A stretch of 64,000 nucleotides of DNA, taken from NCBI GenBank assembly GCA_000004985.1, contig GG738891.1. One strand, given 5' to 3'. The notes below the pieces were generated by a model. That model was not told where the DNA came from. It ran no database searches and worked only from the letters and a program-made list of their open reading frames with translations. How positions within the stretch are numbered: the stretch's first letter is position 1; every line of letters starts with the position of its first letter. Source of the stretch: Naegleria gruberi (taxonomy: Eukaryota). This document shows, one piece after another, positions 12,104 through 22,425 of the stretch. A program made the position numbers and the translations under genes.

Positions 12104-13903
12104 ATGAAAAGACATTCAAATGGCAATTCTGTTGGTTCTTCTACAACAGCAGAAGCCGAGGATAGCAGCATCATGATGCTTCGGGTTGATAATGATAATG
12201 ATGGAGAATCAATCAACAACACTGATGATCACTCTCATGGAGGACCAAAGTTGAAAAAGGTCAAATTGAATCGTGATGATTCTTTTGCAAATTTGAGTGT
12301 AAATATTATTGGTCGTATTATGGAGTATTATTCGTATTTTATGGAACATACATTTATTTTGAGAGATGCCAATAGTAGATTACTGTTAGATATTTATGCA
12401 ATCAAAAAATTGAACGATCAAAGACATGTCTTTCTTCTATTTCCAAGTATTGAATTGGAAATTTATGAATTTAGTTTTAATTTTGATTATTCATTTCCTA
12501 TGGATGTCAAACATCTAAAATTAATTGACAGAAGGCCATTATCACAGATAGAACACAAACCACAGGCTGCACTTTATCCAATTCACAAAATGCAACACTT
12601 GGAGACATTAGAAATATTTAGTAATATTCTACATGAAGGATTTATTCCTACCCTATCAACAGCCAAACATTTAAAATCCCTTTCACTTAAAAGTGTGTGT
12701 GAAATAACTTTGGATGGTCTCAGAACCATCTTGAAATCATGCCCTTCTCTACAGTGTCTTAGATTGGGAAACAAGGGTTTCGAGCTTGTAGATGACCATT
12801 TTTGCGAGGATATTATTGAACATCCAAATTTAAAGGAGTTACACTTGCCTTACCATAATATTTCAAGCAAGGGACTGGAGGATTTGATCAGTAATAGCAA
12901 AATTCACATACTTAACTTATCTGAAAATCAAGAAATTGAGGAAGCCGACATGTCCTGTCTTTCAAAGAGTGACAAGTTGACAGATTTGAATCTTTCTTAC
13001 AACAAACTAGGAGGAAAACAGATTAAGCAAATAGCCAAACATGGCAAGAGTGTAAAATATTTAAATTTATCAACTTTGAAAACAGAAATCAATCCTAAAT
13101 ATATTGGAAAATTATTACAGATGAATTTAGTTAATCTTTCGATTAGACATTTAAAACCAGTAATAATAGACTCGGCGATATTTGATATCAAGAGTAATTT
13201 ATCCAAGTTGGACATTTCTTTAACATGCGGAGACGAAAATACATCAGGAGATGATATTGCTATCAAAATTTCACAGAATTTCAGCAACTTGAATTTTTTA
13301 TCCATGAGAAGATGTTATCTGTCAGATAAATCAGCAATGGAGCTTGTTAAGATGCCATCTCTAAAACACCTAAATCTAAGCTTTAACAAGATTACAGATG
13401 ATACTATCAGACAATTCGTTAATCTAAACTCCTCTATTGAGACTTTCTATATCAATAATAACAGTCAATTAACAGCTAGTGGCTATAAATTGTTGGCTTA
13501 CCATCCTAATTTGAGCTGTCTCAGAATATCTGGAAAAATTGGAAATGACAGTATTATTCACTTACTGACTAATTCACATCAACTCAAGTTTTTACAAATT
13601 GAAGACTACAAAAGACTTTCCAATTTACCTTTCGAATTTTTGGAAAAGTGTCCTACTTTGGAACAATTATATATTTCAGGATGTTATGTATCAGATGAAG
13701 CTGCAGCCAATATTGCCATGAGCAGTGTTTATGATTTAGCAATAATTAATCCAAAACGAGGATATATTTCAAATTCTCTTCTCAAAATTCTTGCACAATC
13801 CAAAACTCTTCAAACAATTAGGTTAGCCTACGATAACGTACATGAATTGACAGAGGGCGTGAAAGATCTCAAATGTGGTGGAAAACAAGTTGTTTGGCAA
13901 TAA
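12104..13903 (+). CDS. Leucine-rich-repeat (RNI-like/F-box-LRR-like) protein
   Basis: Real ATG at 12104. Repeated L..L.L..N.I LRR units (LNLSYNKLGGKQIKQIAKHGKSVKYLNLS, LKHLNLSFNKITDDTIRQF). Stop TAA at 13901-13903. Confidence 0.65.
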   Translation: MKRHSNGNSVGSSTTAEAEDSSIMMLRVDNDNDGESINNTDDHSHGGPKLKKVKLNRDDSFANLSVNIIGRIMEYYSYFMEHTFILRDANSRLLLDIYAIKKLNDQRHVFLLFPSIELEIYEFSFNFDYSFPMDVKHLKLIDRRPLSQIEHKPQAALYPIHKMQHLETLEIFSNILHEGFIPTLSTAKHLKSLSLKSVCEITLDGLRTILKSCPSLQCLRLGNKGFELVDDHFCEDIIEHPNLKELHLPYHNISSKGLEDLISNSKIHILNLSENQEIEEADMSCLSKSDKLTDLNLSYNKLGGKQIKQIAKHGKSVKYLNLSTLKTEINPKYIGKLLQMNLVNLSIRHLKPVIIDSAIFDIKSNLSKLDISLTCGDENTSGDDIAIKISQNFSNLNFLSMRRCYLSDKSAMELVKMPSLKHLNLSFNKITDDTIRQFVNLNSSIETFYINNNSQLTASGYKLLAYHPNLSCLRISGKIGNDSIIHLLTNSHQLKFLQIEDYKRLSNLPFEFLEKCPTLEQLYISGCYVSDEAAANIAMSSVYDLAIINPKRGYISNSLLKILAQSKTLQTIRLAYDNVHELTEGVKDLKCGGKQVVWQ

Positions 13904-13909
13904 ATATAT

Positions 13910-16627
13910 TTATTTCTTCTTTTCTGACTTTTCCTCAGAACCAGGAACAAGCTTGTAGGTATGGAGCTTGTCAAAAACGAGAGCAACTCTCTTTTTCAAC
14001 CTTGTTGTATCTGTTATCATTTCAATTTCTTGTTGAAGAGTTTTATCCTTAGGGTTCTTGGTTAAAACAGTGCTCAGCAATTGACCTAATCCGAAATCAA
14101 CTAACTCTTCCCAACCTGGTGATTCATCGTGCACATCAGAAACCCAGTGATTTTGTAAAACTTCCATTTCTTTGTCTTCCAAAGAAAGATTCAACTTCAT
14201 TAATAAATGCATTAATAAAGTTGCACAAGAAAGGTTTTGAGAAAGTTCTTTCAGATTGGTTTGAGTCTTTTCAATCTTCTTTGTTAGAGTCAGAATGTCA
14301 TCATAAGTCTTTTCAAACAAAATGTCCAAGCTATTGATTGAGGTTGGATTCTTATCCTTGTATCTGACCATTAAACGCCTTTGTATTGTTCTGAATTGAG
14401 CTGCCAGTTTGTCCAATTGCTCGTAATAAATTTGCAAACCAAGACGGTTCTTAAAGTGTTCGTCTATAATATCAAAGTATGGGTAGAATGGAAGATTTTC
14501 TGTACTTTCAATCTTAATTGGAGATTTATCATCTGACTGCAGGGCAACATTACAGGCCTTCAATCTTCTTGTTGTTTCTTTGGCGAGTAAATACATAGTT
14601 TCAAAATTGGCAGATTGAATTCTATATCTTCCTGCATTCTTTGATACTAAGAGAGTTGCATCTTTTCCATTAGCATATTGGAATGTTAAGATGTTTTCAC
14701 TCACTAAATTTTCAGTTTCAGTATCTCCCTGTGGTATCAAATCTTCAAACAATGTAGCAATTGGTATTGGGGATTTGTTAGTTTCTAAAGTGATTTTGTG
14801 AGTTGTAACTTTCTTAGCAGGAACAATATCTCCACACAATCCGAAAGGAAGCAAAAAGCTGCAGTTAGATACACGAGGCTGACCTGTTAAAGGATCATGG
14901 TAAATTGCACTAACAGAAGCCTCAAGAGTCTTTGGAGTGCATTCATTACCACCAAATACAGTTATTGGGAGAACATATGGTGTTCTTTGAGACCCAGCAT
15001 CTTGAAAGAGTAAGTTGCCTAATAATTTGAAAATACTTACTAAGGACACTAATGTAAGTGGTTGGTGCTATCACATAAAATGGTTTTTCCACACTCATAT
15101 TAATTGTAATATTTTCTAATTGGCATTCATCACCTGTAAAACCTATGTACAACTTGATGGTCACTCTCTTATTTTCAGTTCCAGTACTGAATGACTCAGG
15201 GTCAACACTAGTTGGTATTTGAGCTCTTATTACTAAACTTTCATTTGCTTCATCCTTTTGATTTCTCTTTGTTTTTCTTATGATTTGTTGAAGACGCTTG
15301 GTTTCTTCTTCCAAACGCTCATAATCAATATCTTTGTTTTCAAGAGTTGGAACAGAGTTCGAAATGGCTCCAGTACCAAGATAATTTAAAGCAAGGTTTC
15401 CTTCTTCATCCAAAGAAACAACCATACCCTTGATTCCATTAAAATTAGCAACTCTAATACTCACAGGGGAAGAATTGCACCCAGCTGCCCAAGCAAGCTT
15501 AGGATCAGAATAGATCATTATTGTCTTGTTGTGAGTTCCCAAAATCAAATTTTGTCTTTCAGCTTTGGATATAATTTAGATTTAATACCTATATGGTCAG
15601 TACTTACTAGGATCTGAGCTTGGTTTGTAGAGATCTACTGCACTAGGGAAATAGTCAAATCTCATTTGTGTCATTAATTCTCCATTTTCCTTGATACTGA
15701 ATAATGTTCGTTCTCCTATAACTAGAATTTCAGATTGACCTGCTGATAAATATTGACTATATCTTCCAACAAGAATGTCATAGACTTCTTCTCCAACATT
15801 TACAGTCCAATTTGCTTTTACCTTTTTTCCGTTTGTATTTTCTTTTTGATTCGATCCGGATGAGGCTGCCAACATTTGATATCTTTCAACATTAGACCAA
15901 TAATAAAACAGCCCTACTTACTTGTAAGCTTCAACTTCCATCGATGAATTAAATGTAACAAAACTGTCCATAGATTTGCTGTATGTTAATGGTCCAGGAA
16001 CTAAACTTGTTGACAAGAATCTTTGGAAAGTAAAGTGGTCTTGCTCAAAGAATGATAATTGGCCATCAAAAGATTGAATACAAATATAATCCTTTCCGAA
16101 AGCACCTCCAAAAGGGCCATAACAAAAGTTGTAAGATAATCTTTGAAGAGCATGTTCATAATACAAATGAAGTGTATAACCTTCCATAGAATTTGGATCT
16201 TGATCATTGCTTGAAACAAAAGACTCGGAGGCTTGTTTTACAATAGTATACACTGCAAACTTTTTAGGCATCAAAACACCAAGAGCATTATCCCTTGAAT
16301 TACTAGAATAAAATTCAAAGCTCAATCCTTGCCTCAACAACTCACAAAAACTTACGGAATAAATTTACCAATTTCAACTTGCAAAATTGGTGCTTCTAAT
16401 TGTTTTTCCAACAATAAATCAGTTGGATAAAAAGTGTTTTTCTGAGGTTTATAAATTCTGAGCATTCCAGATAAACTTCCTACAACAATTTTATCCAAAT
16501 AATTATCTTGACTAGAATTTGGGGGTCTCTCATTGTCTACATTTCCTATACAAAGAGAACCCTTATCAAATTCTTCATTCACTCCGCATTTAGTCGACCA
16601 CCATTCTCGAAGTTTAAAAAGGGACAT
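13910..16627 (-). CDS. BBS9: BBSome subunit BBS9/PTHB1 orthologue (5 exons)
   Basis: Exon1 16352-16627 MSLFKLREWWSTKCGVNEEFDKGSLCIGNVDN (human MSLFKARDWWSTILGDKEEFDQGCLCLANVDN). Exon2 15918-16340 (..YYEHALQRLSYNFCYGPFGGAFGKDYICIQSFDGQLSFFEQ..). Exon3 15597-15875. Exon4 about 15010-15548. Exon5 13913-about 15000 (..HKITLETNKSPI..). Collinear with human PTHB1 throughout. Stop at 13910-13912. Confidence 0.85.
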
Positions 16628-16821
16628 TTTTTTGTACTTGTATTGAGATTGTATATTTGAAAAAATTGGCGGGAAATTTTGTCTTTATGCCTCAAACCAA
16701 CCTTTTGAAAAGCTTGAAATTTTCATCATCCACAAAATTAATTACAATTCAATCATGTATTCATCATTGCAATTCTTCAATTATATGATAATGATAATTT
16801 ATTGTACAATAGTCACAAAAT

Positions 16822-19800
16822 TTAGTGGGTTTCCTCAGTTTGAGCAGTGGCAGCGCCAGGTTGTGTGGTTGGTTGTTGTGGTTCGACATATTCTTCGAAT
16901 TGGTGAGGTTCGAATGTCTTGACATAGGTAGTACGGATGAGTGGGTAAGGTAAAATTTCTTCAAAGAAACTGATATCCAAATGTTTGGATGTCTTGACAG
17001 TTCTATCAAGGAAAATGCAACAAGTATCGTATTGCTTTTCATAACCCTTAGTACCATTCATGTGGAGAAGAATCATGGCAGCAAACTCGGCGAATCTCTT
17101 GTAATCCTTTTCAAGTTCAGCAATCTTATTGGACTTGACACTGTGAACAGCTTGAATCAATCTGTGGAATGCAGTAATTGACAAGTGGGTATTGTTATAC
17201 CAACCTTCAAGATTGACATCATAGACGCTGTCCTTTTCTTTCCAAGTGGTATTGAGAATAGTGAGAGCAGCAAAGGCCAATGGTAAGACTTCCCAAACTT
17301 GAGATCTATCAACGAGTGGAGACAACTTCAATCTGAGAGGGTGATCAACATCAGAGAAACCACAATCAGTAGCCAAAGCGTCAATTGGAAGGAACTTGCC
17401 ATCACCATAATAATTTCTGGAATATTGTTCGTAAGCACTGTCAATGACATCATAAATAGCTGGGGCATTTCTTCTAACTGAAGATTGAAGAGCAGATTGT
17501 AAACATTGTCTGAATTCCAAAATACCACCAAGTTGAATGAGGAGTGGCATGAGTGTTTCGAGAGGAACAAGAGTTTGTCTGACCTTCTTATCCAAAACAA
17601 ACTTTTCATCATAGAGTTTGCTTTCAATATCCTTGAGGGCATTGTTGGCTTGGGACAAAACTTCTCTGATCTTTTCACTTCTTACATAAATTTCATCCAA
17701 CAAGGATTGATTCAAAGCTCTGAAACCATACGGACCAGTCAAGGTGATGAATGCCTTCAATTCATTGTAATCCAAGTAATTTTCAACATTGTAACTTTGA
17801 ATTGGAGTATTGGCAGTTGAGATGAAGGTTTGTCTGTTTGGATGGAAGAGAGTCTTATACTTTTGTGGATCTGAAACCAAATCAGTGAACCATTGTGAGT
17901 AGATTGAAATCAAGTTGGCTGGTTCTGTTGTTTGAACAACACCGAATGGTGAATCAACATAATTCAAATGCACAAAGTTATCCAAGAATGAGTTCAGAAC
18001 CAATTCTTCAGTATTGATATTGACACATTGTTCAATAATCTTTAAGGATGACATGAAAGAGTGTAATTCACTCAACAATTCTGATGGAGAAATGAACTTT
18101 GGAGTAAGAGCGTCATTCTTCATTTCCTTAGCTGTCAAATCAATAGTAGTGGCAATTCTCTTGATATACTCGGCAATGTATTCTTCGAGAACAGTTCTTA
18201 AGTATTCAACAGGGTAGAAAACATTGTCATACACAACGATTTCGTCGTATCTAGATAATGAGTACAACAATTGAGTGACATTTCTTTCCAAATCACGCAT
18301 ATCATTGATAGAATTATTTTCAAAGTGACTTTCGACACCTGGAACTGCTGGTTCTTCGATATATTGCTTGTTCTTACCATATCTACGGAGGATAGTTTGG
18401 GCAGCAACATCACCACCGATTTGATGAGTTAACATTCTGTAACCATGAGAACTGTTCAACAAATCAAGACCCTTTCTAATTCTGTCGACTAATTGTCCGA
18501 GCATTTGTTCAGCAAATTGAACTGATTGTTGACCAATTCTGTTTCTGAGGGATGGATTAAGTTGAGGGTGAATATTATCAGCATATGTGTTAAGAATTCT
18601 GATAAAAGCAGTCGAATACAAAGGTTGACTCTTTGAACCAATAAGACCTTCAGAGAAAATCTTATCAACATCAGCTCTGTAGAAGTACAATTGCTTGAGG
18701 GATCCCTTTTCGACCAATTCATCATATAAACCATCGACGTGCTTTGAGAATACAACAATCTTGGTCATGGTATTAAACAAGAGTGTCATTTCAGGCAATG
18801 TTTGTTTGAATTGATAACCGGACAGGAATGATTCAACTCTCTTCCAATTCAAACGCATGGCTTCAAAATCTTCACTATTTTGAATATCTGACATGATTGA
18901 TTCCATAATACCAGTAACTTTGGCAAGTTCAAGCTTGGCTTTATGTTCTTCGATCAATTGCCTGGCCTTATTATAATACAATCCACGAATAATCTTGAGA
19001 GAGTATTTTCTAATAACATCTCTGTGTTGCACACAAACGTACATCATTTCATCCATGAGGTAGATCATTTCACTAATCAAAGTTTCCTTAACTTCCTTGA
19101 ACTTCTTTTGAGCAGACTTTGGAACGTATCCATTGTGATGGAAATACCACATGATTTCATTTCTGGCCATTGAAATAGCAGCCAAAACCAAGTTGAATTT
19201 TGGTCCAAGCAAACCAGGTTGATCCTTCATCATGTTGAGCAAGGACTTTAATTGCAATCTGAGATAATTTCTCAATTCCTTGTGATAGTCATGACATTTT
19301 TCAGCAGCAATTTCTGCAAGTTCCTTCAATGATTTCTTTTCCTTTTTCAAATCTCCAAACTTTTTAATCATGACATATTCTTTGAAAGGATCGTGAATGT
19401 TGTAAACTTCATCACCGTAGAGTGGAATGACCAAGTTATTGGCCAAAACTCTTTGTAAGAGAATTTCATAACAACGAAGAGGAGCATCCTTGTCCTTCTT
19501 CTTGCTGACTACAACTGGTGTCATTCTTATTTGTTTTTCTGGGGCACGAGCAAGTGCATCAGGACAACAAGCATAAATAATAGCAACCCATTCTACGATA
19601 TCTTGATAACAATTCAAATACAAGTATGTTTCATCAACAGCAGGGAATGGAATTCTATCTGGTTCAGACAACATTTCCAAAGGTCTTTTAACATTCAAAC
19701 CACCAAAAGTACCTCTTTCAAATGCTGGAATGAGAGCAATGAGTGCTTTACCAATTTGATCTTGAATTGTGAACCATTTTTCTTGGAAACGAGGAATTGG

Positions 19801-20620
19801 ATCAGCAAAATCTTTAAACAATTGCCAAACTCGTTGAATGTTTGGTTCTGCTTGACCGTTCAATTTCAAATAACTCAAGTTTAACAAACAAACAATAAGT
19901 TCCTTGTCCTTAATTCTATTCAGCAACAAGATCAATTTCACATATCCAACCAACATTTGCAAATAATCATAACATGTTAAAAAGTTGACATCTTGTAAAA
20001 AATCAATATTGGCATTTGTAGACATTTCTAATATTGTTTGTTGAGCATGTTCTGTCCATTGTAACAATTCTTTAAATGTTAAATAAATTGGATGTACTTG
20101 ATTAAACAGTGTTGTCATGTTATTCAATGCCCAATCAAAGCCTTGAACCTTTTCCAATTCATCAATGGCAATATGTGGAGCATCTTTTAATAATTTAGCG
20201 AACATTTTCTTCATATCCACAGGAAGTGTGGACTTCATAATATCAGGTTTTAAATCATTATCACCAAGTTCATTCTTTATCGTATATAAACGTTGGAGGA
20301 GAGCCTCAGAATGTTGTTTTAAAACAAAAAGCTAAAATAGTTTTGTTTCGAATATATTTTGCATCAAGTAGTAGTGCAGGATAGCGTTTGATAAATAAAA
20401 ATTGAAGAGAGGAGGGATCATAGTTAGTATAAATTATTATGAATCAGAGAGTGATAAATCCATTCAATCCACACAGTGAAAAATAATTTTCATCATCATC
20501 ATTAGAATAATTAAAACGATTGTCGTTTAATACGAAATAAATTGTTGATCAACAATAGAATAATAATGTTAAAGAGGAGATGATGTGTTTGCTCTGCTTA
20601 CCTTCTCTGCTACCTTTGCC
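16822..20620 (-). CDS. NCKAP1: Nck-associated protein 1 (Nap1/Hem/NCKAP1), SCAR/WAVE complex subunit (2 exons)
   Basis: Exon1 20600-20620 MAKVAEK with donor GTAAGC. Intron 20341-20599 ends TTTTAG. Exon2 16822-20340 begins LFVLKQHSEALLQRLYTIKNELGD, matching human [30 protein letters not shown]. Internal matches include [30 protein letters not shown] (human [30 protein letters not shown]). About 1179 aa. Confidence 0.8.
20440..20505 (-). ncRNA. Candidate intronic box C/D snoRNA inside Nap1 intron 1 (speculative)
   Basis: The minus-strand intron contains AUGAUGAUGAUGA (box C UGAUGA) about 55 nt upstream of CUGA (box D). The intron (259 nt) is 3-5x longer than other introns in the window. No terminal stem or rRNA guide was verified. 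Confidence 0.2.
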
Positions 20621-20816
20621 ATGGTGTGATTTACAGTGGTGTGTTGGAAATTTTTTTAGATAGAGAAGAAGGATTGACAAGTGATTGAATTGATTGGTCT
20701 GTTTCTGCTACGCGAAGATAAGCAAAACAGAGCACAGTAAAAACATGGCAAAAACTACAGTGAAGAGATCTAGACCTCAATTACTTATTAGCATGGTTGT
20801 TAAGGAATACACATTG

Positions 20817-20822
20817 AAAAAA
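20817..20822 (-). terminator. Pol III oligo-T terminator of the 5S rRNA gene
   Basis: AAAAAA on the plus strand (TTTTTT on the minus strand) lies immediately 3' of the 5S terminal helix. Confidence 0.6.
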
Positions 20823-20940
20823 GACTACAGCACCACAGGTTCCCAAGTTGTCTCCAACCTCAGTACTGATGTGGCTCGACGATGCTTAACTTCTCAAATC
20901 GGACGGGATGAGGTGCATGAATCGTGATATGGCCGTAGCC
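20823..20940 (-). rRNA. 5S ribosomal RNA gene
   Basis: The reverse complement reads GGCUACGGCCAUAUCACGAUUCAUGCACCUCAUCCCGUCCGAUUUGAGAAGUUAAGCAUCGUCGAGCCACAUCAGUACUGAGGUUGGAGACAACUUGGGAACCUGUGGUGCUGUAGUC. It is collinear with eukaryotic 5S rRNA (loop C AGUAC motif, GGGA..CC, terminal helix GGCUAC/GUAGUC). Length is 118 nt, followed by T6 on the transcribed strand. Confidence 0.92.
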
Positions 20941-21096
20941 AACAATTTGTTTGAATTTATAATTATTAAGGGCAAATTCACCAGTCAATATTGATAGAGA
21001 ATTATAAATAATACCACTCTAATTTTCAAAAACAAGAATGAACCTGTAATATTGCTATTATTTTGTAATAAGCTTATTTTTTAATAGATTTAAAAA

Positions 21097-21494
21097 ATGG
21101 ATCAAAGTGATGAGTAAGTAATTGATGAAAAATATTCTTGTTTAACTGATCATTTGGAATCAAATTATACACCAATTAATATTCTAATTATAATAATATT
21201 AAATATTGATTTATTTTGTATAGTTATTGTAATTTAGTAAATGCTATTCAATTATTGGAAAGACAAAAGGCTCAAGTGGAAAAGGATGTAAAGGAATTAC
21301 AGGAGAGACTCGCTCAGGAAAAGAAGGGAATGACCCTCTCCGAGCAATTACTAGTCTCGGAACAAGTTGTACAACAAGTTCCTAAAATTGATTTTGCTCT
21401 CTATCTTCAATTTTGCAAGGAACACAATGTGCACTTGGCAAAAGATGTTCAACAAGCTCTCGAAGCCTACATAAAGGAGGCCAAGAAGAAATAA
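21097..21494 (+). CDS. Small coiled-coil protein (2 exons), function unknown
   Basis: ATG at 21097 (MDQ..). A donor lies near 21106-21119 (GTGATG or GTAAGT) and an acceptor TTTAG at about 21236. The second exon reads NAIQLLERQKAQVEKDVKELQERLAQEKK..KDVQQALEAYIKEAKKK with TAA at 21492-21494. The ORF-track start at 21216 is TTG. Confidence 0.35.
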
Positions 21495-21646: not shown

Positions 21647-22324
21647 TTATTGGATAAGATTAAACTGTTTGAAAAGTTCAATGTATTCACCACCCAAATG
21701 ATTTGCCATATCAACAGCATTGGATTTGGATTCAGACTCAACTGAATTAGAATAGGCATCACAAACAATTCTATCATTCACACCATTTCCACATCCATAT
21801 TCCAAAAGTAATTTAACAGCTTCCAAATCCTCATTTTCTAAAGCTGCACAGATTGGTGATGTTGAAACGTTGGTAACATCTCTAGGCATATCACTTGAAT
21901 CATAATAGGTGCATGTGTAGCTTCTATTAATTTTAGGATCAGCACCTCTTTCCAAGAGAATTTTCATTGCTGTGTGATCCTTCTTTGTAACAGCTCCATA
22001 CAGACAAGTGGAAGAATCATTGCCATATCTTACAGTGGATGTATCATTCCTGGTGGCGTTAGGATTTACCTTAATTTCATCAAGCAAATATTTCATCACG
22101 TTATGATGACCTTTATCGAGTGCTCTACATAAGGCATCACCAGTGAAGCTATACTTATAGTAGGTATAGTATTTTTGTGTGGTAGGGTTATGATGCTCCT
22201 CACAGAGTTGTTTAGCTTTCACCGAGTCCAATTTTGAGAGAAGGGCTTTAAGGTTCTTCAGACAGGTAGTTTCATCGTCTGTCTTGTTGATGGTTTCATG
22301 TACGTTCTCAACAGTTACTTTCAT
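21647..22324 (-). CDS. Ankyrin-repeat protein
   Basis: Real ATG at 22324 (aaaaaaacaATGAAAGTAACT); the track start at 22411 is TTG. Ankyrin repeats (HNVMKYLLDEIKVNPNATRND, DHTAMKILLERGADPKINRS, EDLEAVKLLLEYGCGNGVND). Confidence 0.55.
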   Translation of the reverse strand: MKVTVENVHETINKTDDETTCLKNLKALLSKLDSVKAKQLCEEHHNPTTQKYYTYYKYSFTGDALCRALDKGHHNVMKYLLDEIKVNPNATRNDTSTVRYGNDSSTCLYGAVTKKDHTAMKILLERGADPKINRSYTCTYYDSSDMPRDVTNVSTSPICAALENEDLEAVKLLLEYGCGNGVNDRIVCDAYSNSVESESKSNAVDMANHLGGEYIELFKQFNLIQ

Positions 22325-22425
22325 TGTTTTTTTTAAGTTTTCTTCTACTAACCGTGGATGAGTAGATGAACTTGTTGCATCTCTCACTGAAATGGAATTA
22401 TTGAGGACCAATTTTATAAAGTTTC

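Follow-up and report, generated by a model that had tools for sequence, protein, structure and literature searches.

The DNA analysed here, a 64,000-nucleotide stretch of the Naegleria gruberi genome (hereafter the window), carries on its minus strand one 5S rRNA gene. The preferred reading, to which we assign a probability of roughly 0.85, is that this gene is a standard Pol III 5S unit and a member of the dispersed N. gruberi family, and that its position beside the Nckap1 gene is accidental. This reading draws on the identity of the RNA, its structure, its terminator, the motifs upstream of it, the non-conserved position of the gene, and the family to which it belongs.

Searching the whole 64-kb window with Rfam cmscan yielded a match to the 5S model RF00001 at 20940..20822 on the minus strand (100.3 bits, E 1e-20), which lies well above the gathering score of 38 and spans model positions 1-120 untruncated. 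The gene ends in ...GCUGUAGUC, directly followed, without a gap, by TTTTTT at 20822-20817, and since its 3' end runs straight into this T6 run, the earlier coordinates 20817-20940 describe gene and terminator exactly. The initial annotation had claimed a real minus-strand 5S gene closed by a T6 terminator and had proposed an RF00001 search and a fold into the three-helix junction as checks; the full-length match, the only one above the gathering score in 64 kb, the T6 run and the fold described below bear this out. Runs of at least four T follow all copies for which the terminator was read, that is T6 in the window, and T7, T4, and T4-A-T4 after the copies at loci L006, L008, and L003 of Willaertia, respectively.

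Both the minimum free energy and the centroid structure of the window 5S adopt the canonical Y shape, in which helix I closes the arms II-III and IV-V, and the same three-way junction was obtained as RNAalifold consensus of the 5S alignment. The z-score of the single-sequence minimum free energy (-1.77) is not significant on its own and, therefore, it is the covariance model and covariation that carry the structural claim. The latter was evaluated in five 5S sequences, i.e., the window copy, the orthologous copy of a close strain (L006), an unlinked copy of the N. gruberi group (L008), the Willaertia magna copy (L003), and a distant metagenomic 5S (L009) that served as outgroup for covariation only. 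Standard pairs fill 95.9% of the pair cells in this set, and both sides have changed in 14 of the 39 pairs, a degree of pairing reached by none of 500 shuffles; in controls with the partners slid by 1-3 columns, pairing falls to 33-42%. The window sequence itself contains one non-canonical pair, U21-C57. Scanning metagenomes with the invariant 33-nt core of the 5S returned two contigs only, L008 (N. gruberi group) and L009, while the same core gave no match in bacterial or archaeal genome contigs. L009 is a GC-rich contig of eukaryotic origin, with a 5S at 244-362 on the minus strand (98.8 bits) that has the 33-nt loop-C/helix-III core in common and is diverged in the remainder. The features of the locus are compiled below.

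Coordinates of the 5S rRNA gene, its candidate promoter elements, and the neighbouring features within the window
Feature	Coordinates	Strand	Basis or remark
5S rRNA gene	20822..20940	-	119 nt by Rfam; mature 3' end ambiguous inside the T-run, ~118-120 nt
T6 run, Pol III-type terminator abutting helix I	20817..20822	-	Sequence
Candidate internal control region (ICR), as in type-1 Pol III promoters	20844..20891	-	Inferred; box positions by analogy with Xenopus
Candidate box A, ~+50..+64	20877-20891	-	Xenopus analogy
Candidate intermediate element, ~+67..+72	20869-20874	-	Xenopus analogy
Candidate box C, ~+80..+97	20844-20861	-	Xenopus analogy
TATA-like element AATTATAAAT at -24..-15 (TATAAA at -21..-16)	20955..20964	-	Sequence
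AATTTG motif at -38..-33, nine nt 5' of the TATA-like element	20973..20978	-	Sequence
Mirror copy of AATTATAAAT, 88-97 bp before the ATG of the putative plus-strand gene	21000..21009	+	Inverted repeat
Spacer between Pol III terminator and Nckap1 ATG, 194 bp	20623..20816	-	Geometry
Nckap1 exon 1, ATG 20622, MAKVAEK, then GTAAGC donor	20602..20622	-	N-terminus homology
Nckap1 intron 1, 270 nt, GT...AG (AG at 20333-20332)	20332..20601	-	Sequence and homology
Nckap1 exon 2, begins LFVLKQHSEALLQRLYTIK...	16822..20331	-	PF09735; exon start confirmed by homology
Putative divergent gene, exons 21097-21113 and 21224-21494, 95-aa coiled-coil-like product	21097..21494	+	In-frame splice model
77-aa ORF, TTG start, antisense to the 5S gene	20694..20927	+	Mechanical ORF list

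Within the window the 5S gene stands alone. A permissive Rfam scan found no second 5S-like match in the 64 kb, relaxed blastn with the gene found no 5S fragments elsewhere in it, ARAGORN found no tRNA, and Rfam found no 18S or 28S; the gene is, thus, the sole RNA gene in 64 kb and the only Rfam match above a gathering score. A mir-544 match at 13330-13407 on the plus strand (30 bits against a gathering score of 66.5, E 0.1) was treated as chance. The assertion that the window has one such gene only, without linkage to rDNA, is, therefore, sustained at gathering as well as permissive thresholds, as neither another 5S nor any other rRNA is present. Likewise, the 77-aa ORF on the opposite strand was rightly called spurious, since it overlaps the rRNA gene and a collection of about 15 billion proteins contains no exact match to it. 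Annotation of the 119-nt 5S keeps this antisense ORF from being taken for a gene, the public N. gruberi gene set being protein-centred, and beyond annotation the window 5S gene matters little.

Five intron-free ORFs of the window correspond exactly to proteins of Naegleria gruberi NEG-M (XP_002673343, XP_002673345, XP_002673415, XP_002673418, and XP_002673419) encoded on a contig of 339,217 bp, which disposes of the hint at a fungal lineage that had been read into the dispersed 5S gene. For this organism, and in the same assembly, Feng et al. (2012, PLoS One 7:e36878, PMC3369914) have reported 279 putative 5S genes that are not located with the rDNA and that possess an ICR, an upstream TATA box, and T-run terminators. 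Parsing of Table S1 of that study (PMC3369914) gave 279 copies on 117 scaffolds with a median same-scaffold spacing of 33.9 kb; one pair only lies less than 1 kb apart, and 174 of the 279 are without a listed neighbour inside 20 kb. The same table includes many low-similarity or partial copies, and Table 1 of the study scores the N. gruberi 5S as 'tandem arrangement: Y' (PMC3369914). Because the coordinates in Table S1 are spread, the family is better described as dispersed with loose clusters, contrary to that tandem score. A lone 5S copy in 64 kb is what is to be expected with about 279 dispersed copies at a median spacing of about 34 kb. With a genome size that we take to be about 41 Mb, 0.44 copies are expected per 64 kb.

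The ribosomal DNA of Naegleria accounts for the remainder of this picture, in that the 18S, 5.8S, and 28S genes are present on an extrachromosomal circle of 3,000-5,000 copies, which carries only those genes (PMC5805870). Since the rDNA is extrachromosomal, chromosomal 5S genes cannot be rDNA-linked, and since the circle holds 18S, 5.8S, and 28S, the 5S rRNA must come from scattered chromosomal genes. Naegleria, thus, keeps the former three on thousands of circles and has a few hundred 5S genes scattered over its chromosomes, and with so many copies each of the latter is individually dispensable. A dispersed family combined with extrachromosomal rDNA makes a lone 5S among protein genes the published norm for N. 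gruberi. The term 'solitary' that was applied to the gene is consequently appropriate at the scale of the 64-kb window but not genome-wide, where it is one of 279 putative copies (PMC3369914). The published family and the window copy agree in organism, assembly, length (about 117-119 nt), chromosomal location apart from the rDNA, and TATA and T-run features, to which the published ICR and the candidate ICR of the window copy can be added, with no essential difference; dispersed 5S genes of this kind have been known at the family level since 2012, and this copy is an ordinary one.

The segment from +50 to +97, which corresponds to the candidate ICR, is identical across the three N. gruberi-type copies (window, L006, and L008). 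In an ungapped alignment with the Xenopus 5S, boxes A and C are similar. Upstream of the gene, the TATA-like element is in agreement with the TATA box described for the family (PMC3369914), and its position at -21..-16 is nearer to +1 than the usual position around -30. The unlinked copy L008 has AATTATAGAA one nucleotide further upstream than the TATA-like element of the window, and an AATTTG-N9-AATTATA arrangement precedes both copies. The gene flanking L008 matches an N. gruberi protein encoded on a different, 401-kb scaffold, and the two loci are, therefore, unlinked. Similarity between them ends about 40 bp upstream of the 5S and stops at the terminator. The Willaertia 5S is preceded by a related motif, AAATTCG, and then by a TATA-like TATTTAAA at -32..-25. 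Recurrence at these two to three loci suggests that the AATTTG motif and the TATA-like element form an upstream promoter element.

According to the published survey, TFIIIB and TFIIIC are found in N. gruberi, whereas TFIIIA was not found by BLAST or PSI-BLAST (PMC3369914). As TFIIIA diverges quickly, its absence from N. gruberi is not established, and as it was not found, canonical type-1 recruitment is not established for this organism either. For the window copy, Pol III would be recruited via the ICR (A box, intermediate element, and C box) and the upstream TATA-like element, the latter of which would position TFIIIB/TBP. Transcription would start at G 20940 and terminate in the T6 run at 20822-20817, and the product, about 120 nt long, would then, we infer, be trimmed at its 3' end and, together with ribosomal protein uL18 (L5), be built into the large subunit. 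The location 194 bp upstream of the Nckap1 ATG would reflect the chance placement of a copy in a compact genome.

The neighbouring gene, which had been named 'Nap1', is not the nucleosome assembly protein, as the same-strand ORF at 16822..20238 matches Pfam PF09735 (1054.9 bits) and, thus, encodes Nck-associated protein 1 of the SCAR/WAVE complex (Nckap1). Its first two exons match the N-termini of the homologues, which read MAKVAEKLFILKQHS... in Willaertia and MSKIAEKLYVLRQHS... in N. fowleri; the MAKVAEK of exon 1 is identical to the Willaertia N-terminus, and N. fowleri has MSKIAEK. Overall, the protein is 83% identical to that of N. fowleri and 71% identical to that of Willaertia magna. 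An N. gruberi entry from NCBI or UniRef was not among the Nckap1 homologues, the sole 100% match coming from ENA and Logan metagenome assemblies, and the published N. gruberi protein set may lack or mis-model Nckap1. The initial annotation placed the 5S gene about 200 bp upstream of the start of this gene on the same strand, which is accurate, given that 194 bp separate the end of the T run from ATG 20622. The 5' UTR of Nckap1 and some, if not all, of its core promoter have to fit into this spacer, and on reading it no canonical TATAAA was seen in the 194 bp. The upstream region of Nckap1 contains a Pol III unit. Downstream, Nckap1 is immediately followed by PTHB1 (BBS9; 13910-16627, minus strand), whose stop and the end of a convergent LRR gene (12104-13903, plus strand) are only 7 bp apart.

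At the other side of the 5S, a plus-strand gene may begin at ATG 21097, 157 bp from the 5S +1. Its in-frame splice model has an intron at 21114-21223 (GTAAGT...AG) and a GC content that is coding-like (36-44%, versus 16-25% in the flanks). The predicted 95-aa protein has no Pfam match and no homologue and is absent from the protein collection, for which reasons the gene is regarded as putative only. If it is real, the 5S lies in a divergent intergenic region of 474 bp; without it, the intergenic region around the 5S extends over about 1 kb, from an ankyrin-repeat gene (21647..22411, minus strand) to Nckap1. Ten nucleotides at 21000-21009, facing this putative gene, are 100% complementary to 20955-20964 and form an inverted repeat with the TATA-like element; this mirror copy may be due to chance in AT-rich DNA of about 20% GC.

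Conservation of the 5S position was evaluated by scanning with Rfam the Nckap1 loci of relatives, namely two of N. fowleri (L001 and L002), two of Willaertia (L003 and L004), one of a third Naegleria species (L005), and that of the near-identical strain (L006), in which the Nckap1 protein is 100% identical. The 5S occupies the same place in L006, and among the loci examined the arrangement of 5S and Nckap1 is common only to the window and this strain. No 5S was detected within 10 kb of Nckap1 in N. fowleri, nor in the 3.3 kb upstream of Nckap1 in the third Naegleria species. In Willaertia magna, a 5S is found on the opposite strand, just past the PTHB1 stop and, hence, downstream of the Nckap1-PTHB1 block; the two contigs at this locus represent alleles or homeologues, and both carry the 5S after PTHB1. 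The L003 copy (16820-16938) resembles that of the window in having an identical 33-nt core, with covariation in helices I, II, IV, and V, and in being a single, intergenic gene that faces a divergent protein gene; it differs in being located at the other end of the two-gene block and in the position of its TATA-like element, around -30. Nckap1 and PTHB1 are adjacent in the window, N. fowleri, and Willaertia, and the upstream neighbours differ. In Willaertia, a tRNA-Gly(GCC) gene precedes the start of Nckap1 by about 270 bp (L003 9663-9733 and L004 9666-9736, both on the minus strand), and it is at the borders of the conserved block that Pol III genes are located; the presence of a different Pol III gene at the orthologous Nckap1 promoter may be a coincidence. 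As the 5S is found at different block edges in different lineages, there is no sign of selection holding it beside the Nckap1 promoter, and the special relation to that promoter that the earlier reading entertained finds no comparative support, with the 5S absent from N. fowleri and L005 and located elsewhere in Willaertia. Where hundreds of Pol III genes share a compact genome, chance is expected to bring such genes close to a Pol II start.

These comparisons also bear on the proposal that the 5S unit, bound by TFIIIC and TFIIIB, insulates or modulates the promoters of Nckap1 and the putative divergent gene, or shares TBP-binding elements with them, which we consider very unlikely. It is a matter of geometry only that the terminator lies 194 bp from the one ATG and the +1 lies 157 bp from the other, and the mirror-image AATTATAAAT elements and the Willaertia tRNA-Gly upstream of Nckap1 can be added on the same side. 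Moreover, at each of the three independent heterolobosean 5S loci examined, a divergently oriented protein gene starts on the 5' side of the 5S, with its ATG 157 bp from the 5S +1 in the window (20941-21097), 166 bp in L008 (658-823), and 218 bp in L003 (16939-17157). Against this proposal, the arrangement is absent in N. fowleri and the Naegleria species of L005, a shared orientation in n = 3 loci would arise by chance about 1 time in 8, the divergent gene of the window lacks homology support, and proximity is expected in a gene-dense genome. Yeast tRNA genes near Pol II promoters are known for tDNA position effects and barrier activity, and they share with the window the placement of a Pol III unit at most a few hundred bp away from a Pol II start, a likeness that is an analogy only. 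The effect of Pol III on neighbouring Pol II promoters in a compact genome is a fair question, for which this locus gives no support.

The same three loci allow a broader conjecture that appears quite doubtful, according to which Naegleria 5S genes would tend to be placed head-to-head with Pol II genes, at some 160-220 bp from the ATG, and, in a lineage in which TFIIIA has not been found, Pol III recruitment would depend on the family upstream promoter AATTTG-N9-AATTATA rather than on the ICR. It draws on three loci for the orientation, in one of which the partner gene is putative, and on two or three loci for the motif. If it were true, about 279 5S units would be built into divergent Pol II promoters, with which they could share TBP sites, and 5S units would mark the edges of conserved synteny blocks.

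The preferred reading, that of an ordinary member of a dispersed family, also has to be weighed against a 5S-derived mobile element (a SINE or retro-copy) in place of a gene. A dispersed family with positions that differ between species does point to some process of duplication or transposition, yet target-site duplications do not abut the gene, there is no A-rich or other 3' tail past the T run, and the 5S is complete with nothing appended. In addition, the flanks are not repeated elsewhere in the 64-kb window, and the similarity to the unlinked copy, confined to about 40 bp upstream and ending at the terminator, is against it as well. Since neither target-site duplications nor repeated flanks were found, a SINE-like origin is argued against, and we hold it to be extremely improbable.

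The main rival is a silent or decaying copy, that is a pseudogene in the making, which would still be full-length and would be tolerated since some 280 copies make each of them dispensable. Relative to L006, the window 5S has 3 substitutions in 119 positions (2.5%), and the terminators differ in length by one T, while the non-coding flanks differ by 5/157 and 3/200 substitutions plus indels, against 0.28% in the Nckap1 coding sequence; the substitution rate of the 5S between these close strains, thus, equals that of non-coding flanks, and these counts, small as they are, do not point to stronger constraint on this copy than on its surroundings. Polarisation of the changes with L008 and Willaertia identified U21C22 of the window (GA in all others) as derived, which breaks the G21-C57 pair closing helix II, while A6 of L006 was derived independently and breaks C6-G113. 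Decay is visible in the family, for example in the partial copies of Table S1 (PMC3369914) and in Willaertia, where the L004 copy (16778-16892) departs from that of L003 beyond roughly position 100, no longer has the 3' strand of helix I, and scores 83.8 bits versus 107.3 bits for L003; to judge from its sequence, it looks like a decaying copy.

Several observations speak against silence of the window copy. It is full-length with a score of 100.3 bits and only one non-canonical pair, its remaining features are intact, including the segment +50..+97 that it has in common with the other copies, the terminator, and the upstream motifs, and three substitutions are too few to tell neutral from constrained evolution. 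A silent copy is, therefore, considered unlikely, and the window 5S is probably an active member of a redundant family, weakly constrained and individually dispensable. The locus shows this dispensability in miniature, through flank-like divergence and independent pair-breaking changes in two strains.

Among known systems, Schizosaccharomyces pombe and Neurospora crassa provide parallels, as their 5S genes are single units among Pol II genes, with an ICR and an upstream TATA-like element and without a link to the rDNA. The copy number of N. gruberi is about 10 times that of S. pombe. A difference from both fungi is that TFIIIA has not been identified in N. gruberi (PMC3369914). The 5S genes of N. 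gruberi are likewise dispersed, in an unrelated lineage (Heterolobosea, Discoba) and with the TATA-like element nearer to +1.
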